64,000 nucleotides of DNA from a virus (IMGVR_UViG_3300047470_000295:17962-81961); one strand, 5' to 3'. Counted from the first letter of the stretch, positions 35,695 through 52,377 are shown. The notes: generated from the sequence alone by a model not told the origin. A program made the numbers and translations.

Positions 35695-36389
35695 ACGGTG
35701 GCCTCCAAGGCTTCCAGGATCGGCGGATAGATGCGGTCGCGGGGGATGTAGCGGGACAGCTCCTCTATCGGAGCCCAAGCCACGTCGGCGTTCTCGGAAG
35801 CGTCCCCGTTCACCGCTTCGCCTCGCACGTAGTCGCAGATGAAGTAGTCGCAGTAAGCGCGCGTAACCGGATGAAGCCGTTCACCCAAGTGCTCGCGGAC
35901 CATGCAGTGCACGCCCGTCTCGTCCAGGGTTTCCCTGACAGCGACCTTCGGAGCGGACCCGCCCGGCTTCACGATCCCCGCCGGGAACTGCCACGTCATG
36001 TCGTCGCCGTCCTGCCTGCACACGAGGAGGACATCACCGTCGCGGCGCACGACCGCAATGGCCACCCGCAGCGCCTGCGCCTGCATCTGCTGAGCGTGGG
36101 CGCGCACGTAGTGGATGAACAGCCTGCGCACCGCATCACCTGCCTTTCCGTTGTAGGCCGCGTTGAGAATCCGGCGCGTTTCCAACTTCGGGACCATGTC
36201 GGGCGCCTGATGCCAGGCGGCGACCGTCCGGACCGACACTCCGAGGCGCGCAGCGAACTCTTCCTGCGTGTCCTCGAAGGCGTCCTGGAGCCAGCAAGCG
36301 TGCCGGCCGGTCCACTGGGTGACGTCCACTATCGGCTCCCTGGCCGCTTCCGTGGGGGTGGTTGCGGCGAACCTGCAGAGTGCCTGCAC
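35691..36389 (-). CDS. XRE-HTH / Nudix-fold fusion protein (232 aa, start uncertain)
   Basis: N-terminal QEEFAARLGVSVRTVAAWHQ HTH. C-terminal Nudix fold with a degenerate box GIVKPGGSAPKVAVRETLDETGV. Confidence 0.8.
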   Translation of the reverse strand: MQALCRFAATTPTEAAREPIVDVTQWTGRHACWLQDAFEDTQEEFAARLGVSVRTVAAWHQAPDMVPKLETRRILNAAYNGKAGDAVRRLFIHYVRAHAQQMQAQALRVAIAVVRRDGDVLLVCRQDGDDMTWQFPAGIVKPGGSAPKVAVRETLDETGVHCMVREHLGERLHPVTRAYCDYFICDYVRGEAVNGDASENADVAWAPIEELSRYIPRDRIYPPILEALEATV

Positions 36390-36476: not shown

Positions 36477-36731
36477 TCACTCGCCTTTGCCGAACTGGAA
36501 AGCGCGCTGGTACGAGACGCCTCCCATGATTTCCCCGATCTCTTTCCACGTCTTCTTCTCGTCCTTCAGCCCCAGGGCGATCTCCTGGCGCTGCCGCCGA
36601 CGGAAGAGCTCCAGTTCCTCGTCGAGGTGCTTGGCCAGTTCGATGAAGGCGGCCCATCGCTCGGTGAGGTTCTCGACCGCGCGCAGGTGTTCGTCGAAGG
36701 GTGCGAAAGGAGCGTCGTGGGAGTCGGCCAT
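36477..36731 (-). CDS. small HTH-like regulator (84 aa)
   Basis: First gene of the leftward island. C-terminal KTWKEIGEIMGGVSYQRAFQF. Confidence 0.5.
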   Translation of the reverse strand: MADSHDAPFAPFDEHLRAVENLTERWAAFIELAKHLDEELELFRRRQRQEIALGLKDEKKTWKEIGEIMGGVSYQRAFQFGKGE

Positions 36732-36988: not shown

Positions 36989-37435
36989 ATGGCTACGCAG
37001 ATCGTACAGAACCGTGCGGGCGCAGCGCGCCCCACCTCCCCGCTTCCCATGGCGGCGGCGCAGGCGATGCACCGCATCGAGTACGCCCTGGCCGCCCCGC
37101 AGCGCGAGCTGGCCGCCAAGGTCGGCGCCGCGCTCGGCTTCCGGGGCGGATGTCAGCCCCGCGAGGACCTCGGCGAGACGGCGACCCGCCACATCGTCTG
37201 GTCGCAGGTCGAGCTGAACGACGTCTTCGAGCGGGTCGGCGGCACCGTCACCGCCCGCCGGGTGGAGCGTCGCACCTCCGACAGCTCGTCCACCTGGACA
37301 GCCACCGAGCTCACCCTCACCGTGAACCTGCCGGACATCGGCGCCGTCCAGGTCGCCACCGACCTGGAAGAGGAGTCGGAGGTCTACCCCACGGACCTGC
37401 CCGTCGTCCGTGCCGCCCGCGCGGTGACGGCATGA
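36989..37435 (+). CDS. hypothetical protein (148 aa), first gene of the transfer block
   Basis: ATG ORF with ordinary composition. Confidence 0.5.
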   Translation: MATQIVQNRAGAARPTSPLPMAAAQAMHRIEYALAAPQRELAAKVGAALGFRGGCQPREDLGETATRHIVWSQVELNDVFERVGGTVTARRVERRTSDSSSTWTATELTLTVNLPDIGAVQVATDLEEESEVYPTDLPVVRAARAVTA

Positions 37436-37662
37436 GCGCCCCGGCCGAGGTCGACACCGCCTCCGTCATCGCCGAGCACCGCCGCGTCGAGCGGGTCGTG
37501 TCCGGCATGAAGGTCGGCGACACGGCGGTCATCAACGGGTCCGCGGTTACGGCGGTCAGCCTGACCGAAGCCCTGGTCCTCTCCCGGGCGGAGGCGATGT
37601 CGGCGGCCGACCGCCTGGCGCACGACTTCGCCTCCTATGTCCGGCCGAAGGCGGGTGCGTGA
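37432..37662 (+). CDS. hypothetical protein (76 aa)
   Basis: ATGA coupling. Confidence 0.45.
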   Translation: MSAPAEVDTASVIAEHRRVERVVSGMKVGDTAVINGSAVTAVSLTEALVLSRAEAMSAADRLAHDFASYVRPKAGA

Positions 37663-38006
37663 TGGCCTCCTCCGTGTCGAACGTGACGAAGCTGCGTTGG
37701 CAGCGGGATGCGCATCGTGCCCTCGGGCCCTTGCTGCAGGTGAACGGTCTCCCGGTCGTCACGTGGACAATCGCCATCTCGGGCGCTCTGGTCGGTGACG
37801 TCGATTCGTTGACGTCGACACCGTCCGAGATGCGGGAAGCGTTCGCCGCCTGGGTCCGACAGTTGGACGCCAAGGCTGCTCCGGAGCGTGTCGACGGCAG
37901 TGGCGGCACCCACCTGTACGCCTCGTTCAAGGTCGCCGACGGGCCTGACGTCGGCGGGGCGATCCGCGCCACGATCTACCCGCCGTTCGAAGAGGACGGT
38001 GCGTGA
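37659..38006 (+). CDS. hypothetical protein (115 aa)
   Basis: GTGATG junction. Confidence 0.5.
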   Translation: MMASSVSNVTKLRWQRDAHRALGPLLQVNGLPVVTWTIAISGALVGDVDSLTSTPSEMREAFAAWVRQLDAKAAPERVDGSGGTHLYASFKVADGPDVGGAIRATIYPPFEEDGA

Positions 38007-38164
38007 TGGCCGCCGAGACCCTGGACAGCTTCCCCGCCGGCGGCCCCCGCGGCTCTTGGCCCGCCGAGCAGAAGGCGGCCGAGCTCCGCAAGGCCGGCCA
38101 GGAGGTCGAGGTCGTCATGGACCTGGACTCCGACCGCTTCCTCGTCGTGGCAGGCCGACGGTGA
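38006..38164 (+). CDS. small ORF (52 aa)
   Basis: TGATG junction. Below the ORF-track cutoff. Confidence 0.3.
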   Translation: MAAETLDSFPAGGPRGSWPAEQKAAELRKAGQEVEVVMDLDSDRFLVVAGRR

Positions 38165-38349
38165 ACCCCGCCGACTACGAGCGGATGATGCGCCGCCTCC
38201 ACGAGGTCAACGAGCGCAGCAAGAACCCCACCCGCTAACCCCCCGAACGGCCGCGTCGGCGGAGAAATCCATCCCCCGGCACCCGTCAGCGCGGCTCACC
38301 ACCCCGCACCACCCTTCCTCTTCCATTGATCCACGTGAAAGGCACCCCC

Positions 38350-38589
38350 ATGTCTGTTCTGACCCTCGTCCCGGCCGCCAACGACCCGTTCGACGGCGCT
38401 GAGGCCGACCTGCGAGCCCGCTACGTGGCCGCCTACCTCGCCGACAACCGGTCCGGTGACGTGATCGCCCGCGACTGGACGCTCTACGAGATCGAGATGT
38501 ACGACGCGGCGAACCCCGGCCAGCCGCCGCTCATGGACGAGATCGACAGCCTCGACTACCCGGCCGCCGACTACCCGGAAGCCGCCTGA
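38350..38589 (+). CDS. acidic hypothetical protein (79 aa)
   Basis: ATG follows GAAAGG. Confidence 0.45.
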   Translation: MSVLTLVPAANDPFDGAEADLRARYVAAYLADNRSGDVIARDWTLYEIEMYDAANPGQPPLMDEIDSLDYPAADYPEAA

Positions 38590-38783
38590 TGTTCCGCCGT
38601 CGCCCGGCCGTCGAGGTTCTCGACGAGCACTTCCACTGCCCGAGCTGCGGGCCGCTCGTCTTCGGTCAGACCCGAGCGATCTGCGGGGAGATCATCACGC
38701 CGCCCATCGTCGGCGACGGCCCCACCCGCAAGTGCCCGCCCTGTAAGGCATCCGTCCGAACACACAAGAAGGAGACCCACTGA
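38589..38783 (+). CDS. zinc-ribbon protein (64 aa)
   Basis: TGATG junction. CPSCG...CPPC. Confidence 0.45.
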   Translation: MFRRRPAVEVLDEHFHCPSCGPLVFGQTRAICGEIITPPIVGDGPTRKCPPCKASVRTHKKETH

Positions 38784-38971
38784 TGGGCGTCTTCCGCCGC
38801 ACCGCCGAGCCGACCGGCTACCGCCCCACCGAAGCCGAGGTCGCCAACGCCGCCGCCCAGCTGAACGCCGGCAGCCAGCATGCCGCCTACGACCTGGCCG
38901 CTCACTCAGGTGACCGGCAGCAGGAGACCGCGTTGCGAATCCTCGGCCACAGCATCCAGGACCCCGAGTAG
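38783..38971 (+). CDS. hypothetical protein (62 aa)
   Basis: TGATG junction, follows AAGGAGAC. Confidence 0.45.
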   Translation: MGVFRRTAEPTGYRPTEAEVANAAAQLNAGSQHAAYDLAAHSGDRQQETALRILGHSIQDPE

Positions 38972-39062
38972 CTGACCGGCTGCCCTCGGCCCGCGACGCC
39001 GCGCGCGGGCCATGGAGAACTGGCGCAGTGAACCCCCACCCCATCTGACCTGTGAGGTCGTC

Positions 39063-39269
39063 ATGTTCCGGATCATCGCCTGGGCGTTGCTCGCCCTGTA
39101 CCTGCTGATCGTCGGCCTGTGGCCGGCCGCCGCCGCCCCGGTCGGGCTCGCGTTCGCCGGCCTCGGCGTTCTCCTGGCCGCGATCCCGCTGCCCGCGGTC
39201 ATCGCCATCGGCGCCGTCATCGCCTGGGAGCTGCGGCACCGCTCCAACTCCAAGCCCGCCACCGCCTGA
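39063..39269 (+). CDS. two-TM membrane protein (68 aa)
   Basis: ATG follows GTGAGG. The ORF opens at 39012. Confidence 0.5.
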   Translation: MFRIIAWALLALYLLIVGLWPAAAAPVGLAFAGLGVLLAAIPLPAVIAIGAVIAWELRHRSNSKPATA

Positions 39270-39298
39270 CCACCCGCTGATCGCTGAAGGGAGCGGTT

Positions 39299-40558
39299 GT
39301 GACTGCCATGTCCGTCGAGAAGAAGGTCAACGGCACTCCGATGGCCTCGCCCGAGCCGCGGTTCGACCCGCGCGCGCTGGCCGAGGCGGAGGCGATCCGT
39401 ACCCGAGCCGCCGCCGAAGCCGAAGCCGCCCGAATCAAAGCCGCCGGTGAAGCCGAGGCCGAGAAGATCAAGGCCGCTGAGGAGGCTCGCAAGCAGAAGA
39501 TCCTCAACGACAAGGCCGAGTCGCGGGCCCGCGAGGAAGAGGCGGCGCGGGCGGCCCGCATCGCGGAGTCGAACAGCAAGCGCCAAGAGGCCGAACGCGC
39601 CCAGGAGAAGCAGGACCGGGAGGCGCTACAGGCGCAGGAGGACGAGGCGAAGCTCGCCGAAGAGATCGCCGCCGCCGACGAGAAGTGGCGGGCCTACGCG
39701 ATCCGCTTCGCGATCGTCTGCGGCATCGTCTCCCTGCCCGTCCAGATGAGCTTCTTCTGGAACCCGAAGGCGCCCTGGATGGCCGCCGCCCCGATCATGC
39801 TCGAAGGCGCCGCGTGGGTCGTCCACCGCGGGGCCCGTGCGGCGGCTGTCAGTAAGCGGCCCGTCTGGCACTACCGGACGATCGTCTGGCTCCTCGCCCT
39901 GATCGCCGCCGGCGTGAACCTCTACCACGGCCTCCACTCGTTCGACCCGGGCACGGCCATCGCGACCGCGTTCGCATCGATCGCCGGCCCAGGCGTCTGG
40001 GACCTCCACGAGCACGGCCGGCTCCGCAAGCGCGACGGGGCGCTCACCCGCAAGGAGCGCCGGGCGGCCGAGCGCGCCGCCAAGGCCGAGGCCCAACGGC
40101 TGGCCGCCGAGCAGCAGAAGAAGGCGGCCGACGAGGGGGCCGCACGCAAGGCGGCCGAGGCCGCGGCGGCGAAGCTCGCCGCGGACCGCGAGGTGATGTT
40201 CCCGAAGGTGTGGCAGCACGCCGTGAAGCTCGCCGCCGACCTTGGCCAGACGACTGTCACCAACGCGATCTGGGCCCAGGCCAAGTTCGACGTCGAAGGC
40301 GCCAAGCCGGGCGAATCCGCCGACGTCATCCGCATGCGCAACGCCGCCGAAGCGAGGGTCGCCGCAGCCCGCGAGAAGCGCCCCGTAAACGGATCATCAC
40401 AGCAGGTCGCATCGCAAGTGCTCGGTCCCAAGCAGAAGCGCGTCTACAACCCGCCCGCACGCCCCGGAAAGCGCCGCAAGGGCGACGTGAAGTTCACGTC
40501 CGCTGCACGCCGCCAGGCGTCCATTGCCGCCAAGCAGACCGCCGGAAAGAAGGACTGA
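39299..40558 (+). CDS. DUF2637/Spd-like membrane protein with Ala/Glu/Lys coiled-coil arms
   Basis: Central multi-TM core (AIRFAIVCGIVSLPVQMSFFWNP...PIMLEGAAWVVH...) flanked by AEAEA-rich helices. Sits directly upstream of the TraB-like gene. Confidence 0.65.
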   Translation: MTAMSVEKKVNGTPMASPEPRFDPRALAEAEAIRTRAAAEAEAARIKAAGEAEAEKIKAAEEARKQKILNDKAESRAREEEAARAARIAESNSKRQEAERAQEKQDREALQAQEDEAKLAEEIAAADEKWRAYAIRFAIVCGIVSLPVQMSFFWNPKAPWMAAAPIMLEGAAWVVHRGARAAAVSKRPVWHYRTIVWLLALIAAGVNLYHGLHSFDPGTAIATAFASIAGPGVWDLHEHGRLRKRDGALTRKERRAAERAAKAEAQRLAAEQQKKAADEGAARKAAEAAAAKLAADREVMFPKVWQHAVKLAADLGQTTVTNAIWAQAKFDVEGAKPGESADVIRMRNAAEARVAAAREKRPVNGSSQQVASQVLGPKQKRVYNPPARPGKRRKGDVKFTSAARRQASIAAKQTAGKKD

Positions 40559-40560
40559 GG

Positions 40561-42666
40561 ATGGCCACCCCGCTGACCGACGAGCGTGCCCCGCTGACCC
40601 TCGTCAAGGACACCCCCGAGACGGTCGACCCGGCCGCGGCGTGGGTCGTGGAGAAGCGGCCCCGCCCCGCCTGGATGATGTCCGGGCAGCAGCTGCGGCA
40701 GTGGGCTGTCTACGCCCGCGACAACGCGCTCGACTTCGCCACCCACCACGCCACCCACTCGCCCTACTACCTCGGCTGGTCGGTGCGCGGCTACCGCCGG
40801 CTCTGCCTCCGCTGGTGGCAGGCCCGGCACGACGACTACCGGCAGCAGATCGCCACCGCCAAGCTCATGCTCCGCCAGGCCAAGGAGATGCCGCGAGGCA
40901 CCGCGCGTGCCGCCGAAGAGTCGAAGGCCCGCGCCCTGCTCGAAGTTCGGCGCACCGAGTTCAAGGCGCACAAGCGGCGCCACTGGATCCGCACCGGCAT
41001 CAGCGGACTGCTCGTCGTCGGTGGCGCGTCCGCCGTCGCAGCCCTCGGCAGCTGGTGGATGCAGCTCCTCCTCGTCCTCGCCGTCGTGTTCGCCGGCGCC
41101 TACCACGGCCGACCCGAAGAGCGGGCTGTCGCCGCTGCGCAGGCGCCGACCCGGACGTCGCACCTGGGGGAGGAGACCATGCGGCGCGTCCTCGTCGAGG
41201 CCGGCGTCGTCCCCGAGAAGCGGGCCGCCGAGATCCGCGGCGTCGGCCTGCCCCACACGGAGGGCCCTGGCATCGCCTTCGCCGTCGACCTGCCGTCCGG
41301 CATGCCGGCCACGATCGCGCTCGCCAAGAAGAAGGAGATCGCCTCAGCTCTCGCCGTCCACAGCGACTGGCTCGACCTCGGCGTGGGCCGCGGCGCAGGC
41401 AGCAGCGAATCCCGGCTGGAGATCTGGGTCTCCCGGGAAGACCCCTTCGCCAGCGCCCACGTCTCCCCGCTCATCGGACACAAGGGCAAGCTCGACCTGT
41501 GGAACGACGGCGCCCCGCTCGCCTTCGGGAAGCGCGGGAACACCGTCCTTGTCCGCGTGCGCGACACGATGATGCTCGTCGGCGGCGCCACCCGCCGCGG
41601 AAAAGGCGTCTTCCTCGCCAACCTCAACCTCGGCGCATGCAAGGACGTGCGGGTCAACCTGCGGCTCTTCGACGGCAAGGCCTCCGGTGAGCACAACGCC
41701 TTCTCTGGGCTGCTCTCCACGTTCGTCAAGAAGAACCCCGAGCGGCTCACCCTGTTCCTGCGGGCCGTCCTTGAAGACCTCGACCGGCGCAGCGACTTCC
41801 TCGACGAGCGCGGCAAGGCCAAGCTGACCGAAGACCTGATCGAGGAGATCGGCGGCATCGAGCTCATCGACATCGACGAGTTGGCCACCTACACGGCCAA
41901 GGGCACCAGCCCCTACGTCGACGAGATCGTCGAGAGCCTCGCCCAGATCGGTGCCGTCGGTGCCGGTCTCGGGGTCCTCCTTGTCGCAGCAACGCAGGTC
42001 CCGGAAGTCGACGTCGTCCGCGGCCGGCTCCGCCAGAACCTGATCTCCCGCGCCGCCATGAACACCGAGTCGCCCAACGCCTCCAACACGATCCTCGGCG
42101 ACGGCATGGCCGGTCAGGGCTACGACGCGTCGGTGATCCCGCTCGATCAGCCCGGTCGGTTCTGGTTCAAGTCGCCCGACCTCGGCACGGTGTCGCTTCG
42201 CTCGTTCTTCATCGACGACGACGACAAGGCGCCGATCATCGCCGATGCCTACGAACTCCGGAAGGCCGCGGGCCGGCTTCCCGGACAGTGGCACGACCCG
42301 ATCGAGGAGAAGCTCGCCGCCTGGACCGGCGTCTCCTCGGCCGCCGGCGGGGAGCGCGGCAACGGCCGGATCGTCCGCGTCACCCTGCTGGAGCGGCTGG
42401 AGATCCTTGCCAAGCAGACAGGCCGCGGCAACGTCACGAACGCCGAGGTGTTCGCCGCACTCGCCACCACCGATCCGGCCAAGTACGGACAGCAGGACGG
42501 CGAAACGGGCCACGGCTGGTCGATCCGCGTCGGCAAGATCCTGAAGGACGAACTCGACCGCCTCGGCGTCGACATCGAGGCAAAGAAGGTCGCCGGCCCG
42601 GACGGGCAACGGACGTCGGGCTACCTGCTCGCAGACGTCACTGCCGCCCGAAATGTCCGCAACTGA
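40561..42666 (+). CDS. FtsK/SpoIIIE-family DNA translocase, TraB-like
   Basis: 701 aa. Two N-terminal TM helices, Walker A-like GGATRRGKG, Walker B-like ELIDIDELA, and a C-terminal helical (wHTH-like) tail. Confidence 0.85.
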   Translation: MATPLTDERAPLTLVKDTPETVDPAAAWVVEKRPRPAWMMSGQQLRQWAVYARDNALDFATHHATHSPYYLGWSVRGYRRLCLRWWQARHDDYRQQIATAKLMLRQAKEMPRGTARAAEESKARALLEVRRTEFKAHKRRHWIRTGISGLLVVGGASAVAALGSWWMQLLLVLAVVFAGAYHGRPEERAVAAAQAPTRTSHLGEETMRRVLVEAGVVPEKRAAEIRGVGLPHTEGPGIAFAVDLPSGMPATIALAKKKEIASALAVHSDWLDLGVGRGAGSSESRLEIWVSREDPFASAHVSPLIGHKGKLDLWNDGAPLAFGKRGNTVLVRVRDTMMLVGGATRRGKGVFLANLNLGACKDVRVNLRLFDGKASGEHNAFSGLLSTFVKKNPERLTLFLRAVLEDLDRRSDFLDERGKAKLTEDLIEEIGGIELIDIDELATYTAKGTSPYVDEIVESLAQIGAVGAGLGVLLVAATQVPEVDVVRGRLRQNLISRAAMNTESPNASNTILGDGMAGQGYDASVIPLDQPGRFWFKSPDLGTVSLRSFFIDDDDKAPIIADAYELRKAAGRLPGQWHDPIEEKLAAWTGVSSAAGGERGNGRIVRVTLLERLEILAKQTGRGNVTNAEVFAALATTDPAKYGQQDGETGHGWSIRVGKILKDELDRLGVDIEAKKVAGPDGQRTSGYLLADVTAARNVRN

Positions 42667-42826
42667 CATCGGACAGGCACCGGACCGGGGGCGAAAGAAC
42701 CGCAGGTCGCGCACCTGACAGGCATCGGACGCCCACAGATAGTTCGCGAGCAGTGGGCCCCCACTGTCCGATGCCCGTCCGGTTCCCCACCTGCAGGTTT
42801 CCATCCACTGCCCGCTTCTTGTCCGG
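42667..42826. repeat. short-repeat cluster downstream of the translocase gene (clt-like)
   Basis: CATCGGAC at 42667 and 42723 (direct) and 42766-42773 (inverted). CCGGAC/GTCCGG at 42680, 42777 and 42821. Confidence 0.4.
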
Positions 42827-42853
42827 TCGAAATGCGAGAAAGGTCCCGGCCCG

Positions 42854-43459
42854 ATGCTCACCCTCAAGATCCAGCAGATGGCTGTCAACGGGCACCCCTA
42901 CCTGTGCCCCGACTGCGCTTCCCAGGCGTTCACCCTCGACGGCCAGGGCTTCATCGACGCCTTCCCCGTCTGGGGCAACTGCTGGAACGGGCACAGCTGG
43001 GAAGACCCGCTCATCACCATCGCCCACCTCAAGCAGATCGACGAAGCCCGCACCGGCCGGCAGCGCGCCGAAGACGACGACACCTTCGAGATCGTCATCG
43101 GCGGCGTCCTGCTCGCCGGGATCCTGCACCCCGAACTCACCCTCGACGACCTGAAGACGGAGGCTCGCGTCCTATGGAAGCGGGGCCTCAAGCCGACCCT
43201 CCGACGCAAGAAGCGGGCCGCTCTCCGCGCCGTGAAGAAGCCCGTCGCCAACGCGGTCGCCGCCGCCCAAGCCGCCGCGATCGGCGCCGCCTGGGGCCTC
43301 CAAGCCGGCGGCCACCAGCCCGACCCCAACTACACGCCCGAACCCGTCAACGCCTGCCCCGCCTGCACCGGCACCGGCGGCCACGACATCGAAAGCCGCA
43401 TCCACCAGACCACCCGCATCCGCTGCTCCGTGTGCACCGGCACCGGCGAAATCGACTAG
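42854..43459 (+). CDS. protein with C-terminal DnaJ-type CxxCxGxG zinc finger (201 aa)
   Basis: CPACTGTGGH ... CSVCTGTGE at the C-terminus. N-terminal CPDC. Confidence 0.5.
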   Translation: MLTLKIQQMAVNGHPYLCPDCASQAFTLDGQGFIDAFPVWGNCWNGHSWEDPLITIAHLKQIDEARTGRQRAEDDDTFEIVIGGVLLAGILHPELTLDDLKTEARVLWKRGLKPTLRRKKRAALRAVKKPVANAVAAAQAAAIGAAWGLQAGGHQPDPNYTPEPVNACPACTGTGGHDIESRIHQTTRIRCSVCTGTGEID

Positions 43460-43474
43460 GAGACCAGGAAATCC

Positions 43475-43660
43475 ATGGAGCGCTACCACTCCCTCTACTT
43501 CGTCTCGATCATCGGCCCCGCCATCTTGGGCCTGATCGCCCTCGCCCTGATCGCTCTCCCCGGCGAACCGAGCACCGCTCGAATGCTCATCGGGCTCGCG
43601 GTCTACCTCGCCGTCGTAATCGGCGGTGGCGCAGTCATGACTCGACGCCTCGACCGATAG
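43475..43660 (+). CDS. two-TM membrane protein (61 aa)
   Basis: Hydrophobic ORF. Confidence 0.45.
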   Translation: MERYHSLYFVSIIGPAILGLIALALIALPGEPSTARMLIGLAVYLAVVIGGGAVMTRRLDR

Positions 43661-43701
43661 CAGCCACCCCCAACACGCAACTCACCTAAGGAGACCCCAC
43701 C

Positions 43702-44193
43702 GTGACTGTCCTGCCCGAGCCGACGCCCACCGCCCCCGCGGCCGGGCAGGCCACCAACCCGCTGACCGACGCCGTCATCACGGCCGCCGTCGACCACGCC
43801 ATCCATCAAGCCCGCCAGACCGGAACCGCACCCAAGGTCGTCATCGGCAACGCGCAACCCGTCCCGCAGCCCGACTCGCGGATCGCACCCCAGTGGGCCG
43901 TCGGCGTGGCCATCGCGTCCATCGGAGTCGGCGCTGGCTCGACCGGCCTCGGCTGCGCCGCTTGGCTTGCATGCAAGGGGCTCTCCCTCGTCAGCGTCCC
44001 CGGGCTCGAACGCTTCGCCCTCATCGTCATCGCACCCTTCGTCGGCGCCGCCATGCTCGTCACCGCCGTCGGCGTCGCAATCAGCAGGGCCCGAGCCGCG
44101 GCCACCACCATCCACAACCACGGCCCCGTCGACCAGCGCACCCTCCACGCGACCAGCAAGGGCGTGTGGGTCAAGAACCACAACGAGCAGTGA
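43702..44193 (+). CDS. multi-TM membrane protein (163 aa), Spd-like by position
   Basis: GTG follows AAGGAG. Three hydrophobic helices. Confidence 0.5.
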   Translation: MTVLPEPTPTAPAAGQATNPLTDAVITAAVDHAIHQARQTGTAPKVVIGNAQPVPQPDSRIAPQWAVGVAIASIGVGAGSTGLGCAAWLACKGLSLVSVPGLERFALIVIAPFVGAAMLVTAVGVAISRARAAATTIHNHGPVDQRTLHATSKGVWVKNHNEQ

Positions 44194-44207
44194 CAGAGAG
44201 GACCCCG

Positions 44208-44393
44208 ATGAGAAGGAAGACCTACCACTTCAAGGCTGCAGTCAGCGACGGCAAGCACCACGACGGCGAATGCGAAGGCATCGTCGAAGCCTCCAACGAG
44301 ACGTCAGCCCGACGCGCCATCGCCGACCAAGTCGTGCAGGACGGGCGCAAGAACAAGCGTCACTGGACCGCAACCCATATCGAACTGAACTGA
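44208..44393 (+). CDS. small basic protein (61 aa)
   Basis: ATG follows AGAGAGGA. Confidence 0.4.
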   Translation: MRRKTYHFKAAVSDGKHHDGECEGIVEASNETSARRAIADQVVQDGRKNKRHWTATHIELN

Positions 44394-44407
44394 AGGAGAC
44401 CACCAGC

Positions 44408-44623
44408 ATGTGTTCTGACGGACCCACCACCAGCTACGGCTACGAGCTGTCCCCCGGCGACGAGGCCGACCCCGGCGACATCCCCGTCTGCTGCTACGAG
44501 CCCATGTCCGGCGTGACGACCGAAGAAGGCGACATCGACTACACGTGCGGCGACTGCGGCACCGTCCTAGAGATCAGCCGGAGCGGCGTCGTCGGGGACA
44601 TCCGCGAAAAGGATGCCGCCTGA
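44408..44623 (+). CDS. small acidic zinc-ribbon protein (71 aa)
   Basis: ATG follows AAGGAGAC. CC...CGDCG. Confidence 0.4.
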   Translation: MCSDGPTTSYGYELSPGDEADPGDIPVCCYEPMSGVTTEEGDIDYTCGDCGTVLEISRSGVVGDIREKDAA

Positions 44624-44675
44624 TGGAGGGACACGCTGACTGCTCCTGCAACTGCTGAACTAGCCAGACACGGAA

Positions 44676-44708
44676 GGGCCCCGACCGGGATCATCTCCGG
44701 CCGGGGCC
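44676..44708 (+). terminator. hairpin, copy 1 of a duplicated terminator
   Basis: GGCCCCGACCGG-gatcatct-CCGGCCGGGGCC then TTCGTC. Confidence 0.5.
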
Positions 44709-44801
44709 TTCGTCTGTGAATGGTCACAAGACTGACACTCCGGCCCAGAGGGTGTACGAGCAGGCGCATGATGCCTCCTCGGACTCGCACCAGGGGGCGT
44801 C

Positions 44802-45287
44802 ATGTTCTTCAAGCAGGACCCGGAGAAGGCCGCGCAGAAGGCCGCCGAGAAAGCGGAGAAGCAGCGGATCCGCGAGGAGGCTGCGGACCAGAAGGCCGCC
44901 GATAAGGCGGCACTCAAGGCGTGGCGGGAAGCCCACCCGGCCGAGCGCACGATGAACACGGCCGCGACGATGAGAACGTGGCCGTCATCGAAGATGGGCG
45001 TCACTAACCTGGGGCCGATCAAAGGCGGGTCCGCAGAGTTCGTCAACGCGGGCGCCCACAAGGGCTGGACAGCTACCCGTCTCATCGCAGGAGCGGCAAC
45101 GATGGGCACCTCGGCTATGGCGACCGGCCGGAAGAACAAGGGAGCCGCGGTCATCAACGTGACCTTCGGGAACGGGGCCGCCCAGACGTTCAACGTCAGC
45201 CCCGAGAGCCAGACCCTCAGTGCAGCCAACCGCTACGTCAACGCCTTCAACGCCCTCGCTGCGCAGCTGGCACAGGAGGACGAGTAG
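44802..45287 (+). CDS. hypothetical protein (161 aa), moron-like
   Basis: ATG follows CAGGGGG. Lys/Ala/Glu helical N-terminus and Gly/Ala/Thr-rich C-terminus. Bracketed by near-identical hairpins. Confidence 0.5.
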   Translation: MFFKQDPEKAAQKAAEKAEKQRIREEAADQKAADKAALKAWREAHPAERTMNTAATMRTWPSSKMGVTNLGPIKGGSAEFVNAGAHKGWTATRLIAGAATMGTSAMATGRKNKGAAVINVTFGNGAAQTFNVSPESQTLSAANRYVNAFNALAAQLAQEDE

Positions 45288-45305
45288 CCGCTAACTGGAA
45301 ACTAC

Positions 45306-45333
45306 GGGGCCCCGACCGTCCTCGGCCGGGGCC
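45306..45333. terminator. hairpin, copy 2 of a duplicated terminator (bidirectional)
   Basis: GGGGCCCCGACCG-tcct-CGGCCGGGGCC then TTCGTC. Confidence 0.5.
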
Positions 45334-45349
45334 TTCGTCGTGCGGTGGG

Positions 45350-45583
45350 TCAGACGTGTCGCCGGTCTTGAAGCACGAGCGCGATCGCGACACCGGCTGC
45401 CGCCGCCGGAAGAACCGCGACCACGGCCACCCAGCCGAGCCACGAGTCTGGGCCGATGAGTAGGGCGGCGATGGCGCAGGCGGCGGCGGGGACGATCAGG
45501 CCGAGCCAGAATCGGCGCTTCATCTGGCGCTCGCTGGCCTCGCGTTCAAGGCGTGCGCGTTCGGCGGGGCGGTACTGGCTCAT
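45350..45583 (-). CDS. two-TM membrane protein (77 aa)
   Basis: ATGA coupling to the upstream minus-strand gene. Confidence 0.45.
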   Translation of the reverse strand: MSQYRPAERARLEREASERQMKRRFWLGLIVPAAACAIAALLIGPDSWLGWVAVVAVLPAAAAGVAIALVLQDRRHV

Positions 45584-45801
45584 CCGCTCTTCTCCTCGCT
45601 GCTCGCTGGTCGTTCTGATTCTCCACCAGTCACAGCAAAGGCCTTCGTCTTGCGGGGGACAGCACGAGCCACCCAGTGCCGGCCGGCCGCGTCGGTGGGG
45701 TCCGTGGCGACCTCGGCGTCCATGCGCTCGCAGATCCGCGCCAACTCCCGTTTGCAGGCGGCTTCGGTTCGCGCCCGGACCATGTAGACGACGTCGCTCA
45801 T
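45580..45801 (-). CDS. hypothetical protein (73 aa)
   Basis: ATG ORF, first of a two-gene leftward cassette. Confidence 0.45.
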   Translation of the reverse strand: MSDVVYMVRARTEAACKRELARICERMDAEVATDPTDAAGRHWVARAVPRKTKAFAVTGGESERPASSEEKSG

Positions 45802-45957
45802 GACGGCAGTGTGGCGGCTCGTCGGCGGCCGTGGGCGGGTTCACGGGAAGTGACCGTGCACGTCGATAACTGTGCCATTGGCCCAGCGTGTCAACCCCAC
45901 AGTGCACAATTGGCCTAAGCGTCACTGCTTCCCCGTACCACCGCCGAGGAGCCAGCC

Positions 45958-46719
45958 GTGCACGACCACCCCACCCCGAAGCCCTGCCCCGGCCCCTGCA
46001 ACAACGCCTGGCGACGAGCCGAAGCCGTCCTCGCCGAAGCCGGCACCAGTCACCACCTCACCCCAGCCTGGGGCCAACCCACCCAGTGCTACGGATGCAG
46101 GGAGCGAGCCCTCCGGCAGATCACGGAACTCCCCGAACTCCTCACCGCAGTACAGCTCGAAGCCATCTACGGCACCCGCCCACAGAACACGGCCACCATC
46201 CATAGCCACCCCAACGACACCCCCGCCTGGCCCGGTCAAGCCGCCCGGCTCCTCATCGACACCCTGCTCGGCGAGATAGAAGAGCTCCAAGCCGACGTGC
46301 TCACCTTGCGCGGCATCTGGAAAGCCGACACCCAGACCGGTCGGGAAGGAGTCCGCGAAGGTCAGCGACTCACCGGCGCCTGCCGCGTCCTCGCCGCCCA
46401 CCTCGACTGGATGCTCCAACACCACCCCGCGGCAGGCGAACCGCACGAGCAGGGGAACGCCAACCCGGCCGGCCAGATACGGCACTGGCACGCCGCCGCT
46501 CAGCGCTTCACGAAGCAGCACCCGCAGCACGACGTCCGCAAGCTCGCACCCTGCCCCCGCTGCAAGGGCCCCTACCTCGCCGAGTCCCGCGACCTCCGCC
46601 TCGTCGACGACCGGCCGTACATCGAATGCCGGGATCCCGACTGCCGGCGCATCATGACGACCGCCGAGTACGAGACTTACGTCAAGGCTCTCGCCGCAGT
46701 AGTCACACAGGCCGCTTGA
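45958..46719 (+). CDS. zinc-ribbon-containing hypothetical protein (253 aa)
   Basis: GTG follows CGAGGAG. CPGPC, CYGC, CPRCKG...CRDPDC. Confidence 0.5.
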   Translation: MHDHPTPKPCPGPCNNAWRRAEAVLAEAGTSHHLTPAWGQPTQCYGCRERALRQITELPELLTAVQLEAIYGTRPQNTATIHSHPNDTPAWPGQAARLLIDTLLGEIEELQADVLTLRGIWKADTQTGREGVREGQRLTGACRVLAAHLDWMLQHHPAAGEPHEQGNANPAGQIRHWHAAAQRFTKQHPQHDVRKLAPCPRCKGPYLAESRDLRLVDDRPYIECRDPDCRRIMTTAEYETYVKALAAVVTQAA

Positions 46720-46843
46720 CTTCACGCAGCGTCATGCATGATCCTGAGGCCACGCGCAGCATGCCCGCACATGCTCAAGGCCTCCACGGACTCGTCCGTC
46801 GGGGCCTTTTCGCATTCCCGAACACCGCAAGGAGGTGGCCGTC

Positions 46844-47074
46844 ATGGTCGATCTGACCGTCGACTTGCACACCACCCTCTGGAGCGTCTCCGAGGCAGCC
46901 GAGGCCGCCCAAGTGAGGCCGAACGTCGTCCGCAACTGGAAGTACCGCGGCGTTCTCAAGCAGGCCGGCGAAGACCACAACGGACGCCCCCTCTTCAAGG
47001 CGATCGACGTGATCACGGCGGAGAAGACGACGCGCGAGAAGGCCCGCCGCGTCTACCCCGCCCACGCCGCCTAG
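46844..47074 (+). CDS. MerR/excisionase-type HTH protein (76 aa)
   Basis: ATG follows AAGGAGG. LWSVSEAAEAAQVRPNVVRNWKYRGVL. Confidence 0.55.
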   Translation: MVDLTVDLHTTLWSVSEAAEAAQVRPNVVRNWKYRGVLKQAGEDHNGRPLFKAIDVITAEKTTREKARRVYPAHAA

Positions 47075-47135
47075 AAGCCCCTGCGCGGGTGGTCGCGCAG
47101 GCCGGGCCTTGAAGCGCCATGCGCTCGGCCCCCTC

Positions 47136-47167
47136 GTCCGCCCGGTCTCGTGGGGGACCGGGCGGAC
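47136..47167 (+). terminator. perfect 12-bp stem hairpin
   Basis: GTCCGCCCGGTC-8 nt-GACCGGGCGGAC. A second hairpin, CCTGCGCG...CGCGCAGG, lies just upstream. Confidence 0.5.
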
Positions 47168-47190
47168 GCACAACACGCAGGAGGCAAACG

Positions 47191-47409
47191 ATGGCGGCAA
47201 TCGGAACCAGCACGATCACCTGCCCCGCATGCTCCGCCGGCCTCCAAGTTCCCGTGTCAGCTGTCCCTTACGCAAGCCAGTCCGGACCGACGATGTACCT
47301 CTCGTTCGACCTGGCGGTCGTGCGTGACCACGTCGCCGAGCACGACCTCGGATCAGCCGACGCCACGGACCTGCCGCTCTCCAACGCCGCCCGAGGCGAG
47401 CATCCCTGA
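47191..47409 (+). CDS. small zinc-ribbon-like protein (72 aa)
   Basis: ATG follows CAGGAGG. Contains CPAC. Confidence 0.4.
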   Translation: MAAIGTSTITCPACSAGLQVPVSAVPYASQSGPTMYLSFDLAVVRDHVAEHDLGSADATDLPLSNAARGEHP

Positions 47410-48035: not shown

Positions 48036-50735
48036 GTGGCGCGGATGTGGACGTGCGGGTTCGAGCTCCAGTCCGTGACAGCCCTCGTCGAGACGCAGGA
48101 CGTCAACACGGTCGGCGGCGCCCCGAGCATCTCGACCAGCATCCACCGCGGCGGCGCAGCCTCCCTCCGCGTCACGCCGACCGCCGGCACGTCCTACGTC
48201 GAACACCAGCTGACCAGCGGTGTTGTGATGCGGACGTTCCACCGCTTCTACCTGTACATCTCCGCCCTCCCGGCCGCCGACTGCAACATCTACGGCATCG
48301 GCCAGTCCGGCTACTTCCCCGGCATGATCAGGCTGAAGACCGACGGCTCCCTGATCCTCCGCGACGACCAGACCGGCACCGACCTCGGCTCCGCCACCAG
48401 CCCGCTCAACACCGGCCAGTGGTACCGGATCGAAGCCGACTTCAACGACGTCACGGGCACGATCACGTCCGGGGTGTCGGCGTTCAAGCTGTACGTGGAC
48501 GGCACCCTGGCCAGCGACCAGCTCTGTTCCAACATCAACGGGTTCAGCCGCGTCCGTGCGGGAGCCCTGCAGTCGGCGAATAGCCTCGACATCTACATCG
48601 ACGACATCGCCGTCAACGACACCAGCGGCACCGCGCAGACGGGGCTCCCCGGACCCGGCACCGTCGTCCACCTCCGGCCCGCCGGAGCAGGCGACAACAA
48701 CGGCTTCGCCACCGTCGTTGGTGGGACCGCAGGCGCGGCGAACAACTACACCCGCGTCTCCGAGACCACCCCGGACGATGCGACGTCCTACAACGCGACC
48801 GTCGCCACCGGCACCACCACCATCGACGACTTCGCCGTGTCCTCGCCGACAACCGCAGGCATCGGCGCCTCCGATGCGATCACCCTCGTCGCCGTCGGCG
48901 CGCGCATCGGCTCCAACGCCACCACCGCGGCCAGCATCGTCACCCGCATCAAAGGCCAGGCCGCCGGCACCGTCTCCGAGTCGGCGTCCACCTCCGTCAA
49001 CGTCAACGGCTGGTCCACGCACAAGGCGGCCGTACCGCGCCTCTACCAACTCACCGCCTACGCCAACCCGCAGACCAGCACCGCCTGGACGAGGGCGACG
49101 CTGGCGACGGCGCAGATCGGCTACCGCTCCAACGTCTCCCAGACGACGGCACGCAGGGTCAGCACCCTGTGGGCGCTCGTCGAGTACGTGCCCGTCAACG
49201 CGGTCACCGGCGACGGCAGCCTCACCGGCACCGCCACCACGTCCAGCAGCGGGGCCATTGGCGCTGGCGGCGGGGGAACCCTCGCCGCAACGGCCGGAGC
49301 CAGCGCAGCCGGACAACGGCAGACGGCAGGTGGCGGAGGCCTCGCGGCGACAGCCACCGCGACCGCCTCGGGCACGATCAGTGCGGCGAGTGGCGGCAGT
49401 CTCACCGGCACGGCCAGCGGTACCGCGGACGGAACCCGGGCCGCAGCCTCCACCGGATCGCTCACGGGGACCGGAACGGCCACGGCCAGCGGGACGCTTG
49501 CGGGAGCAGGCAGCGGAAGCCTCGCCGCTTCAGGAACCGCGTCCGCTGCGGGCGCTGTCGCGGCCGTCGGAGTGGGCAGCCTCCCCGTTACCGCAGGCCT
49601 GACCGGCTCCGGAGCTCGCGCCGCAACAGGCGCCGCGGCACTCACTGCCACCGGCACCGCAACCGCCGCTGGCTCTGTCGCTACAGCCGGAGCGGGAAGC
49701 CTCACGGCGACCGCAACGTCCACGGCGGCCGGCAGCATCGGGCGGGCCATCGACGGCAGCCTCCAGGCCACAGCTACCCTGACCGGTGCAGGCGTTCGTG
49801 CCGCAGACGGTGCAGGCAGCCTCACCGCTGCCGCCACCGCAGTTGCTACCGGGGCTCTTGCCACCGCGGCGGACGCGACACTCGACGTCACCGCCAGCCT
49901 GACCAGCGCGGGCATCCCCGGCCGGACCGGCACGGCAGCACTCGCAGCGACGGCCACGGTCACCGGCGGCGGCATCCGGGAGACCGCAGGCCTCGCAGAC
50001 CTGGCCGCCTCCGCGGCTGCTTCGGCCGACTCGGCGGTCTCCAGCCAGAGCAGCGGGTCGCTCGCCGTCATCGCGGCAACGGGCGCCAGCGGATCTGTAT
50101 CGGCGGCAGGCGACTCCGACGCCAGTCTCACCGTCGCAGCCACCATCAACGCCAGCGGCCAACTCGCGGCAGCAGGCAGCGGCGAACTCGGCGCCCTCGC
50201 CGAGGCGACGGCAGCTGGAACTCGGGACGCGGCCAGCACCGCCGCACTCACGGCCACGGCCGCAACGACCGCGGCCGGCATCCGAGACACGGCAGGCGAC
50301 GCCCCGGCACTCGACGTGGCCGCCACGGTCACCGCCGGGGCGACCGTGCAGACGGCTGGCGACGGAACCCTTGGCGGCCTGACTACAGCGGACGCGGACG
50401 GCATCGTCACCGCCGGCGGAAGCGGCGCGGCCCTGCTCGCTGCCACGGCCGTCCTCACCGCGGCAGGCGCGCTCACCACCCGTAGCACCGGAAGCCTCAA
50501 CGCCACAGCGACCGCGGCGGCGTCGGGCACGGTCACGCGAACGATCACCGGGCAACTGGCAGTCCTCGCCAGCCTCATCGCCGCGGGATCAGCCAGCGGC
50601 GGCGGGCCCGTCGAGCAGCTCGACACCGTCATCGCCGGGGCACCCCGCACCCGCTGGGCTGCAGGAACGCTCCGCAGTCGGCACGGCGCGGGCGCTCCGT
50701 ACAGCTCCTGGTCAGCGCAACAGCCGCACACGTAG
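48036..50735 (+). CDS. fibre-like protein (899 aa): LamG/ConA-like jelly-roll N-terminal part plus a Gly/Ala/Thr 20-residue repeat array
   Basis: The N-terminal ~390 aa are globular (WYRIEADF...FKLYVDGTL). About two dozen GSLTATATxTAxG-type repeats follow. Opposite-strand and other-frame ORFs here are repeat shadows. Confidence 0.75.
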   Translation: MARMWTCGFELQSVTALVETQDVNTVGGAPSISTSIHRGGAASLRVTPTAGTSYVEHQLTSGVVMRTFHRFYLYISALPAADCNIYGIGQSGYFPGMIRLKTDGSLILRDDQTGTDLGSATSPLNTGQWYRIEADFNDVTGTITSGVSAFKLYVDGTLASDQLCSNINGFSRVRAGALQSANSLDIYIDDIAVNDTSGTAQTGLPGPGTVVHLRPAGAGDNNGFATVVGGTAGAANNYTRVSETTPDDATSYNATVATGTTTIDDFAVSSPTTAGIGASDAITLVAVGARIGSNATTAASIVTRIKGQAAGTVSESASTSVNVNGWSTHKAAVPRLYQLTAYANPQTSTAWTRATLATAQIGYRSNVSQTTARRVSTLWALVEYVPVNAVTGDGSLTGTATTSSSGAIGAGGGGTLAATAGASAAGQRQTAGGGGLAATATATASGTISAASGGSLTGTASGTADGTRAAASTGSLTGTGTATASGTLAGAGSGSLAASGTASAAGAVAAVGVGSLPVTAGLTGSGARAATGAAALTATGTATAAGSVATAGAGSLTATATSTAAGSIGRAIDGSLQATATLTGAGVRAADGAGSLTAAATAVATGALATAADATLDVTASLTSAGIPGRTGTAALAATATVTGGGIRETAGLADLAASAAASADSAVSSQSSGSLAVIAATGASGSVSAAGDSDASLTVAATINASGQLAAAGSGELGALAEATAAGTRDAASTAALTATAATTAAGIRDTAGDAPALDVAATVTAGATVQTAGDGTLGGLTTADADGIVTAGGSGAALLAATAVLTAAGALTTRSTGSLNATATAAASGTVTRTITGQLAVLASLIAAGSASGGGPVEQLDTVIAGAPRTRWAAGTLRSRHGAGAPYSSWSAQQPHT
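49218..50616 (+). repeat. about 23 imperfect tandem copies of a ~60-nt (20-codon) coding repeat
   Basis: Counted by eye on the translation. Units start GSL/GTL/AAL and carry T-A-T-A-x-T-A-x-G. Confidence 0.7.
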
Positions 50736-51032: not shown

Positions 51033-51048
51033 GGAGCCCGCGCCATGG
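51033..51048 (+). promoter_or_regulatory. start-associated sequence, copy 1
   Basis: GGAGCCCGCGCCATGG spanning the start codon of 51045. Confidence 0.5.
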
Positions 51049-51749: not shown

Positions 51750-51756
51750 CATGTCG

Positions 51757-51785
51757 TCTAGCTGCGGCTGATCCCCGCAGCTAGA
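51757..51785 (+). terminator. perfect 11-bp stem hairpin
   Basis: TCTAGCTGCGG-ctgatcc-CCGCAGCTAGA. Further nested stems run up to 51830. Confidence 0.5.
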
Positions 51786-51834
51786 GGCGGGCTCCCTGTG
51801 ACGGGGCCCGCCTCGACTCGTCACAGGAGCGCAG

Positions 51835-52290: not shown

Positions 52291-52331
52291 CCCCCACCCC
52301 ACACGCCTGCGGCCAGCTACCGCAGGAAGGG

Positions 52332-52358: not shown

Positions 52359-52377
52359 TCCGCGTTCCCTGGAAAGG

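Follow-up and report, generated by a model that had tools for sequence, protein, structure and literature searches.

Can a temperate phage carry a conjugation system of its own, or does a conjugation-like block in a prophage mark a second element nested inside it? Phages and conjugative elements are usually regarded as separate transmission strategies, and the known phage-plasmids move as phages. The question is raised by a 64,000-nucleotide stretch of viral DNA (IMGVR_UViG_3300047470_000295:17962-81961; hereafter the window, meaning the whole stretch that was analysed), in which genes resembling the double-stranded DNA transfer functions of Streptomyces plasmids share a gene train with phage packaging genes. 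A preliminary description of positions 36989-47409 had proposed an ATPase of FtsK/SpoIIIE/TraB architecture at 40561-42666, a coiled-coil, multi-transmembrane protein resembling DUF2637/Spd proteins upstream, and a repeat-dense spacer and small membrane and zinc-ribbon genes downstream. It had also named two alternatives: that the ATPase groups with chromosomal FtsK or a known actinophage family, and that the block is a nested actinomycete integrative and conjugative element (AICE).

Our analysis suggests that the block is probably a complete Streptomyces-type double-stranded DNA transfer module, native to a large, chromosomally integrated temperate siphophage with packaging genes like those of phage VWB. 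Its parts would be a hexameric TraB pump, a cognate clt site, SpdB2, several small membrane 'spread' proteins and a pair of Pif-like NUDIX proteins. This reading draws on observed homology, protein architecture, an array of cis sites, conservation and genomic placement.

A TraB-like translocase in a conserved cassette

Genes were called from G+C content at third codon positions (GC3), and the open reading frames (ORFs) of the window were then scanned against Pfam, PHROGs and NCBIfam. Relative loci, contigs and plasmids compared with the window carry labels between L003 and L137. The cassette contains the following features.

35269-35778, minus strand: NUDIX hydrolase 1 (Pfam NUDIX, 1.1e-24)
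35691-36389, minus strand: NUDIX hydrolase 2 (Pfam NUDIX, 1.4e-15)
36477-36731, minus strand: 84-aa protein heading the leftward block (GC3 gene call)
38003-38164, plus strand: 53-aa protein upstream of the Spd and TraB genes
39012-39269, plus strand: 85-aa protein with two transmembrane segments, in the position of pSVH1 spd79/spdB3
39299-40558, plus strand: SpdB2-like spread protein of 419 aa, ending 3 nt before traB
40561-42666, plus strand: TraB-like double-stranded DNA translocase of 701 aa, with N-terminal helices, two transmembrane segments, an FtsK-fold motor and a modelled C-terminal winged-helix domain
42667-42853, unstranded: clt-like array of seven 8-mers (CAYCGGAC) in the 187-bp spacer after the traB stop
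42854-43459, plus strand: 201-aa protein with one transmembrane segment and with CXXC pairs at its two ends, placed like pSVH1 spd198
43475-43660, plus strand: 61-aa protein with two transmembrane segments, a small Spd-like membrane protein
43702-44193, plus strand: 163-aa protein with two or three overlapping hydrophobic (predicted transmembrane) segments (phrog_19266, 2.4e-8)

The translation of the 701-aa ORF holds LVGGATRRGKGVF as Walker A and IELIDIDELATY as Walker B. Adjacent hydrophobic segments at residues 145-163 and 159-177 coincide with model helices at 114-181, and hydrophobicity and model both give the N-terminal membrane anchor of a TraB protein. The ORF matched Pfam FtsK_SpoIIIE marginally (25.1 bits, cut-off 24), phrog_1358 'FtsK/SpoIIIE-like' at 1.6e-32 and FtsK in the PDB at 8.8e-5 (24 bits). 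Its AlphaFold model had a mean predicted local distance difference test score (pLDDT) of 68.7, with the motor and C-terminus mostly at 70-90. In Foldseek, this model aligned both with 6t8b, an FtsK motor (E 2.6e-13), and with TcpA, a coupling protein of conjugation (3e-12). The two transmembrane helices, Walker motifs and FtsK/SpoIIIE/TraB architecture put forward in the preliminary description are thus upheld by motifs, hydrophobicity, Pfam, phrog_1358 and the fold match.

TraB, clt and Spd proteins were worked out on the plasmid pSVH1. BLASTP aligned 582 aa of the 701-aa ORF with pSVH1 TraB at 28.9% identity (E 1.35e-34), an alignment that also takes in sequence N-terminal to the motor, and tblastn matched the ORF to the plasmid sequence (NC_007431.1) at E 1e-16. 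The TraB of plasmid pZL1 is 37% identical over 606 aa (E 2e-95) and that of plasmid CP075612 is 45.6% identical; the window TraB matched 51 Streptomycetaceae-type plasmids. Comparisons with pIJ101 Tra and SpdB were weak (E 0.001 and 0.035, respectively; hhalign probability 66% for Tra). The NCBIfam FtsK model scored 19 bits, relative to a cut-off of 1566. Judged by BLASTP, PDB and NCBIfam scores, the protein groups with plasmid TraB, far from chromosomal FtsK and outside the known actinophage families, contrary to the first alternative named in the preliminary description. The ratio of nonsynonymous to synonymous substitution rates (dN/dS) between the window TraB and its relatives was 0.18-0.53, which implies purifying selection.

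In the model, the C-terminus consists of helices at residues 609-620, 627-637 and 650-667 and strands at 624-626, 675-678 and 684-689, with a pLDDT of 81-88 over the block. Residues 609-699 are therefore predicted to have a winged-helix topology, with no fold match for the domain alone.

A clt-like array directly behind traB

The array starts at the first base past the traB stop codon, and its copies span 42667-42828. Four copies are forward, at 42667 (CATCGGAC), 42678 (CACCGGAC), 42712 (CACCTGAC) and 42723 (CATCGGAC), giving offsets of 0, 11, 45 and 56. Three are reverse, at 42766, 42777 and 42821 (offsets 99, 110 and 154), and the expected eighth copy, at about 42810, is degenerate. Six of the 20 AYCGGAC sites in the window fall within 160 nt (Poisson P = 1.9e-10, or 8e-8 after correction for 400 windows), which argues that the repeats did not arise by chance. 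The 8-mer is not enriched over the whole window (9 found, 10 expected), where CAYCGGAC also occurs singly; the local clustering alone is significant.

This arrangement recurs in relatives. In 14 of 16, four forward 8-mers are followed by three or four reverse 8-mers in the same spacer, with offsets of 0/11/44/55 and 99/110/143/154 that are displaced by as much as 7 nt in a few cases. The arrays of L098 and L102 have different spacing, and plasmid CP075612 carries a looser version after traB. The 8-mer differs by clade (GGTCTGMC, GTYGGACA, GGTCGGAC, CCCCTGRC and CCCTGCC), and each class pairs with its own version of the TraB helix ETxxxWxxRVGK in the predicted winged-helix domain (residues 650-667), a link that is confounded by sequence relatedness. 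Fixed geometry combined with co-varying sequence is what would be predicted for a protein-DNA recognition pair. pSVH1 has four forward copies and one reverse copy of GACCCGGA in the same location after traB, and CAYCGGAC and GACCCGGA(C) have a CCGGA(C) core in common.

Known clt sites contain 8-bp repeats that are read by the winged helix-turn-helix at the C-terminus of TraB, and they overlap the 3' end of tra (PMC3583192, PMC4447253). By its sequence, the array at 42667-42853 behaves like a putative clt site. A promoter and terminator scan of 36.3-47.6 kb found no enrichment, and this result, together with 7-8 copies, spacing by a helical turn (11 bp) and dyad symmetry, argues that the array is not a terminator.

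Spread proteins and a NUDIX pair

The 419-aa protein has an N-terminal part rich in Ala, Glu, Lys and Arg, judged by eye to be a coiled coil. Four hydrophobic segments follow at residues ~133-236, two of them above the Kyte-Doolittle threshold, and then a C-terminal domain. This is the architecture reported for SpdB2, a ~410-aa protein whose gene lies immediately upstream of traB and which has an N-terminal coiled coil, four transmembrane helices and a domain at the C-terminus (PMC4447253). BLASTP aligned the protein with pSVH1 SpdB2 at 31.5% identity over 111 aa of the transmembrane region (E 9.4e-11), and hhalign aligned it with the DUF2637-annotated protein upstream of pZL1 TraB (probability 90%, E 1.5e-6). 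Homologues at 68-69% identity carry the UniRef names 'SpdB2 protein' or 'DUF2637'.

Pfam matches to DUF2637 and KilB were absent from the cassette ORFs. We dropped the DUF2637 label given in the preliminary description, as the 419-aa protein does not match it and genuine pSVH1 SpdB2 has no Pfam match either. Since DUF2637 misses both proteins, 'SpdB2-like' is the correct label; the coiled-coil-like, multi-transmembrane and Spd parts of the earlier assignment stand.

Several small genes accompany this pair. The 53-aa protein has copies (50-69% identical) upstream of TraB in L003, L005, L006, L008, L097-L099, L101, L116 and L121, and the 85-aa protein lies directly upstream of the SpdB2-like gene in most relatives (44-72% conserved). 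Downstream, the repeat-dense spacer and the small membrane and CXXC ORFs (42854-44193) are present as first described. The 201-aa protein, which has a weak DnaJ_CXXCXGXG match, is encoded after TraB in 19 of ~21 close relatives (at least 59% TraB identity) with downstream sequence, at 43-77%, and weakly (27-32%) in two more distant loci. Homologues of the 61-aa protein occur in L117 (77%) and L122 (93%), and the 163-aa protein follows the 201-aa gene in many relatives (31-61% conserved).

The longest ORF of NUDIX 2 overlaps NUDIX 1 by 88 nt, so its start is probably further downstream. A homologous NUDIX pair lies on the opposite strand upstream of TraB in L006, L008, L101, L102, L116 and L122. 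By position and family, NUDIX 1 is an analogue of Pif, the conjugal-immunity factor of the AICE pSAM2 (PMC2440964). The 84-aa protein faces the rightward transfer genes across a 257-bp gap; it has no Pfam match, and its homologues occur in L096 and L111 (35%) and in L102 (67%).

Placement in a prophage gene train

GC3 gene calls and family scans give a prophage-type train in the window (64-72% G+C), with the integrase and repressor on the left and packaging genes on the right.

9106-10398, minus strand: tyrosine integrase (Pfam Phage_integrase)
10748-11332, minus strand: helix-turn-helix repressor
from 16588, plus strand: PDDEXK exonuclease, early gene
from 19304, plus strand: N6/N4 methylase, early gene
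22676-23926, plus strand: replication initiator (phrog_3171)
23773-24504, plus strand: DnaC-like protein
24501-25859, plus strand: DnaB
25945-27642, plus strand: C5 cytosine methylase
32.4-36.7 kb, minus strand: leftward block holding the two NUDIX genes
from 36989 to HNH/TerS/TerL/portal, plus strand: rightward run
58972-59820, plus strand: HNH
60191-60670, plus strand: TerS, the small terminase subunit (Terminase_7, 7e-31), starting the packaging module (60191-63763)
60669-62303, plus strand: TerL, the large terminase subunit (TerL_nuclease)
~62219-63763, plus strand: portal (SPP1_portal, 5e-20)

The int, DnaB, TerS, TerL and portal genes thus belong to one train, as the preliminary description had it. 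The window TerL shares 62-65% identity with its counterparts in the Streptomyces phages VWB, SF1 and SF3, and the order int-repressor-early-TerS-TerL-portal with homologous packaging genes is the layout of a VWB-type temperate siphophage. The host is taken to be Streptomyces because the 419-aa protein has a 100% identical counterpart in Streptomyces sp. NPDC002131.

The block first described in this one element recurs in predicted prophages and IMG/VR contigs, with different bounds. In place of 36989-47409, the part conserved with TraB in relatives covers ~35.3-44.2 kb, which includes the two minus-strand NUDIX genes and excludes 44.2-47.4 kb. The conserved core order is two leftward NUDIX genes, small ORFs, the 85-aa transmembrane protein, the SpdB2-like protein, TraB, the array, the 201-aa Cys-rich protein and the 163-aa transmembrane protein. 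Members of the TraB family were found on 15 IMG/VR viral contigs and at 19 genome loci of Streptomyces, Kitasatospora and Streptacidiphilus. More than 120 protein clusters at ≥ 60% identity belong to the family, many of them on 7-10 Mb chromosomes.

The core lies 4-10 kb upstream of HNH/TerS/TerL/portal genes of the window type in L096, L100, L111 (S. cyaneogriseus chromosome) and L121. In L098, L101 and L005 the terminase or portal genes downstream of the core are only 25-31% identical, and across relatives the cassette is linked to three different TerL/portal types. One IMG/VR contig (L007 and L093) carries a TraB at 81% and an integrase at 84% identity ~30 kb apart, as in the window. Close TerL relatives sit on predicted proviruses of 86-90 kb, which suggests a likely element size of ~85 kb, and they continue with scaffold-like and major-tail-protein genes in canonical order. 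Packaging and structural genes are 70-98% conserved among relatives.

The genes flanking the cassette belong to the phage families phrog_19266, phrog_1568 and phrog_14065, and the GC content of the cassette equals that of its flanks. The scanned ORFs of 32-47 kb yielded no integrase, excisionase, RepSA, RepAM or Prim-Pol, in keeping with the earlier report of no second integrase or Rep there, and no att-like direct repeats flank the block. Because the block lacks its own integrase, Rep and flanking repeats and occupies the same slot upstream of packaging genes in different prophages, it reads as a native prophage module and not as the nested AICE considered at the outset.

The closest relative, L105 (IMGVR_UViG_2862784999_000001), has a TerL 98% identical to that of the window and several counterparts of the 44.8-60 kb genes at 92-97% identity. 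It keeps the SpdB2-like gene (46%). Its TraB slot (561-2840) holds a non-orthologous 692-aa gene matching NCBIfam plasmid_TraB at 1e-9 (37.5 bits, cut-off 800), for which BLAST against the window TraB found nothing beyond 25% over 183 aa. Behind this gene lie repeats of its own, with two copies of CGTCTTCGGGCCG and CGTCTATGGCCCGGC in forward orientation and then GCCGGGCCGTAGACGG and GCCGGGCCAAAGACGG in reverse. The whole TraB-plus-cis-site unit appears to have been swapped in L105, a module exchange within a retained function that is typical of phage mosaicism.

Two further sets of loci share genes with the window. A more distant TraB clade (41-48%) comprises L125, L127-L129, L132 and L134 from Kitasatospora and Streptomyces, with an SpdB2-like gene upstream. 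Its loci carry a homologue (58-64%) of the C5 cytosine methylase of the window 3-5 kb downstream, with a distant integrase ~5 kb beyond it in two of them, and they may represent a smaller element type that shares modules with the prophage. L113 and L114 (S. spectabilis, 1200-7000) hold an element syntenic with the window that encodes two GntR regulators, a NUDIX protein and a KilB-domain protein upstream of its SpdB2-like and TraB genes. KilB is a spread function of pIJ101. Relatives thus retain further plasmid-type transfer genes that the window lacks.

Possible function and alternative explanations

We infer that the module is expressed and acts on the phage genome. The integrase would excise this genome, and its own initiator, DnaC and DnaB would replicate the circle. 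Membrane-anchored TraB would recognise the 8-mer array behind its own gene via the C-terminal winged helix and drive the phage DNA, as a duplex circle, out through the envelope of the hypha and into an adjacent one, or else across septal cross-walls. A channel complex at the septum would be formed by SpdB2 together with the small membrane proteins, and the NUDIX pair, like Pif of pSAM2, may prevent futile transfer between lysogens. The phage genome could then spread through or between mycelia without virions, besides ordinary infection.

Conjugation in Streptomyces needs just one protein and a short cis site, so a phage can gain a second transmission route cheaply. If the module works, the genome could spread through a mycelium, or into adjacent mycelia, without lysis, receptors or particles, which would change how lysogeny is established in a multinucleate host. 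The boundary between AICE and prophage would also blur in genome annotation. A broader proposition is more tentative, and we lean against it: that a widespread integrative siphophage lineage of Streptomycetaceae is truly dual-mode, combining virion infection with TraB/clt/Spd double-stranded DNA conjugation, while clt and recognition helix diversify and TraB types are swapped. If so, these would be the first 'conjugative prophages' and would offer a concrete mechanism for a phage to colonise a multicellular, septate mycelium. The clade-specific pairs of 8-mer and predicted recognition helix form a natural series for the DNA-recognition code of TraB.

Several observations weigh against a native module that works in this way. 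Among 50,697 sequenced phages there was no homologue of TraB, with only Bacillus-phage FtsK-like proteins at E ≤ 1 (E ≥ 0.3), and none of the SpdB2-like protein. As no phage record matches TraB, the ATPase lies outside the characterised actinophage families; at the level of fold, BFVD holds some viral FtsK-like proteins at ~20% identity or less. Given that no cultured, sequenced phage has a homologue, it may be that infectious particles are never made from these prophages, or that selection on the module operates only while the element is integrated. For the window element, head and tail genes lie beyond base 64000 and are seen only in relatives. The NCBIfam equivalog plasmid_TraB (NF041214, cut-off 800 bits) did not match the window protein at E ≤ 0.01, which implies a separate TraB lineage and not the equivalog. 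No GntR-type repressor (TraR/KorA) was found in the scanned ORFs of 32-47 kb; GntR genes lie upstream of the module in L111 and L113. The moderate confidence of the TraB model and the confounding of 8-mer class with relatedness count in the same direction.

We weighed four other explanations and consider each less likely than a transfer module native to the prophage. The one that survives best, although still unlikely, is that the whole element is a large conjugative integrative element or integrated plasmid, with TraB as its only route and its phage genes a defective remnant or domesticated particle system. The lack of this TraB and this SpdB2 in isolated-phage records would fit, as would the computational nature of IMG/VR prophage predictions and an enlarged early region with many accessory genes (methylases, NUDIX and sugar-modifying enzymes). 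However, the HNH, TerS, TerL and portal genes are intact and share 62-65% identity with counterparts in real phages, and close relatives continue into conserved scaffold-like and major-tail genes. Moreover, the plasmid-phage pZL12, which has a tra locus, still makes infectious particles according to the passages that treat it in PMC3583192, PMC4487206 and PMC5431353.

A native pump with some other phage purpose is less probable again. Such a pump might mobilise chromosomal DNA via clt-like sites, exclude plasmids or phages, or be a lysogenic-conversion 'moron'. PHROGs classes FtsK-like phage proteins as 'moron/host takeover', the NUDIX pair could act in immunity or exclusion, and CAYCGGAC is found singly elsewhere in the window. 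Yet the only dense cognate array stands directly after traB, on the element itself, and changes with TraB across clades, as a self-transfer cis site predicts, and the full Spd set is retained.

It is very improbable that the TraB block belongs to an independent AICE or integrated plasmid, inserted in an unrelated prophage or lying in tandem with it. AICEs and plasmids are characterised by TraB, SpdB2 and NUDIX genes, plasmids hold the nearest homologues outside prophage-like contexts, and the early region is unusually long (~50 kb from int to TerS). These points are outweighed by the lack of an integrase, excisionase, Rep or att-like repeats of its own, by the matching GC content, and by the constant slot upstream of packaging genes across different TerL types, with uninterrupted co-oriented small ORFs between. 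The replication genes near int are also of phage type (PDDEXK exonuclease, phrog_3171 initiator, DnaC-like and DnaB), and VWB has the same int-early-TerS layout. Hardly credible is a generic FtsK-like ATPase of unrelated function beside an ordinary terminator or operator, for although the Pfam match is marginal, plasmid_TraB does not match and hhalign to pIJ101 Tra is weak, the alignment with pSVH1 TraB extends beyond the motor, SpdB2 and small membrane genes are syntenic, and the array has the copy number, spacing and symmetry described above.

Other features of the window

A 3' fragment of an acyl-CoA dehydrogenase gene (8905-9010) adjoins int. It comprises 35 codons of the C-terminus, ending in IYTIFEGTSEIQRLVIARTLSGMPIR and a stop, with a further in-frame stop just upstream, and matches positions 121-149 of 150 of Pfam Acyl-CoA_dh_1 (E 6.2e-8). 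This fragment is probably the att core, which would place integration at the 3' end of an acyl-CoA dehydrogenase gene rather than in a tRNA gene; no tRNA gene that could serve as att site was found in the window.

The sequence to its left (1-8900) is not obviously host core genome. It carries a serine resolvase/invertase (2279-3082) and a DUF6221 protein (5055-5672), and a second DUF6221 gene lies inside the prophage at 54911-55492. Positions 1-8900 may represent the end of a further mobile element that integrated in tandem at this site.

Between the cassette and the packaging genes, an 899-aa protein (48036-50735) joins a 395-aa N-terminal domain (phrog_14065, E 6.6e-212) to ~500 residues of low-complexity repeats rich in Ala, Thr, Gly and Ser, with an unusual codon-position GC pattern. 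Its positional counterpart in L113 has 1332 aa. Modification-type genes follow at 51045-54343, 72-94% conserved in relatives, and may act in DNA or cell-envelope modification.

51045-51749: protein of the phrog 'glycosyltransferase / DNA methyltransferase'
52633-53229: S-adenosylmethionine-dependent methyltransferase
53477-54343: NAD-dependent epimerase/dehydratase

Comparison with known systems

The closest parallel in gene order is pSVH1 of S. venezuelae, with its homologous TraB and SpdB2. Its order spd79-spdB2-(orf108)-traB-repeats-spd198-spd40-orf140 mirrors the window genes starting at 39012, 39299 and 40561, the repeats, and the genes starting at 42854, 43475 and 43702, and its 8-bp repeats likewise follow the traB stop directly in forward and reverse copies. 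In contrast, pSVH1 is a 12.6-kb rolling-circle plasmid with the GntR repressor TraR, whereas the window module sits in a large integrated tailed-phage genome, its array has a stricter 2+2 / 2+2 dyad geometry, and TraB identity is ~29%. The closest TraB proteins outside prophage-like contexts, at 37-46% identity, are those of pZL1 (NC_023316) and CP075612. In pZL1, a DUF2637-annotated gene lies just upstream of TraB, with a divergent GntR gene and a NUDIX gene downstream. Unlike in the window, no phage structural genes are annotated near the transfer modules of either plasmid.

AICEs are compact elements of 9-24 kb in which att sites enclose Int, Rep (RepSA/RepAM/Prim-Pol) and Tra and which carry no virion genes (PMC3218068). 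Reviews describe Int-Rep-Tra-Spd-NUDIX modules and mention that FtsK-domain matches can lie in prophages, cases left unanalysed (PMC3218068, PMC2440964). Like pSAM2 (int-xis-rep-tra-spd-kor-pif), the window element combines a tyrosine integrase with just one FtsK-like Tra, Spd proteins and Pif-like NUDIX genes. Unlike an AICE, it has a phage initiator, DnaC-like protein and DnaB, a TerS/TerL/portal packaging module in the same train, a several-fold larger size and 30 kb between Int and Tra.

Among phages, SpdB2 homologues have been noted in phiC31 and VWB, with the suggestion that actinophage Spd proteins spread phage DNA (Thoma et al. 2015), a suggestion that a working module would make testable. 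VWB and the window share the int-early-TerS-TerL-portal layout, and their TerS and TerL proteins are 62-63% identical. VWB gp24 is a DUF2637/SpdB2-type membrane protein by Pfam match, and its gene occupies the corresponding relative position in the early region, upstream of the packaging genes. In contrast to the window, VWB has neither a TraB-type ATPase nor a detectable homologue of the SpdB2-like protein, and no cis-site array has been described for VWB or phiC31. We considered gp24 as a member of the window's SpdB2 family and found no detectable relation; an impression by eye of a TraB-like winged helix in VWB gp26 gave no similarity.

A partial precedent for the combination is the Streptomyces plasmid-phage pZL12/phiZL12 (Zhong et al. 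2010, J Bacteriol 192:3747). It carries a tra locus, and the relevant passages of PMC3583192, PMC4487206 and PMC5431353 report both conjugal transfer and a lytic cycle for it. As far as these passages go, pZL12 and the related elements pSLE1 and PhiNon1 likewise unite tailed-phage morphogenesis genes and a Streptomyces tra locus on one replicon, and pZL12 differs as a ~90-kb circular plasmid with ParAB, whereas the window element has a tyrosine integrase and is chromosomal. The scanned ORFs of the window yielded neither ParA nor ParB, and the homologues in 7-10 Mb chromosomes and the integrase beside a gene fragment are not those of a pZL12-type phage-plasmid maintained extrachromosomally. In pZL12-like plasmids of PLSDB, TerL is ~33% identical to that of the window and the window TraB has no match.

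One candidate of this kind is L137 (NZ_CP108705.1), an 88-kb circular Streptomyces plasmid in PLSDB. It encodes ParA/ParB, a PhlD-type type III polyketide synthase, HNH, terminase and portal. Membrane/low-complexity proteins of 649 and 398 aa adjoin a 717-aa protein that has a GAQGSGKT Walker A and hydrophobic segments in its N-terminal part, and this region may be a tra locus, with weak AAA_22 as the only Pfam match and no confirmation of an FtsK domain. Since the 717-aa protein is not confirmed as FtsK-like, the pZL12 precedent rests on the citations.

We found no paper on a complete TraB-clt-Spd module in integrated tailed prophages in the literature searched. Set beside these systems, the window presents a plasmid-type TraB/clt/Spd module fixed in an integrative temperate siphophage lineage, for which pZL12 and the SpdB2 homologues of phages are partial precedents.

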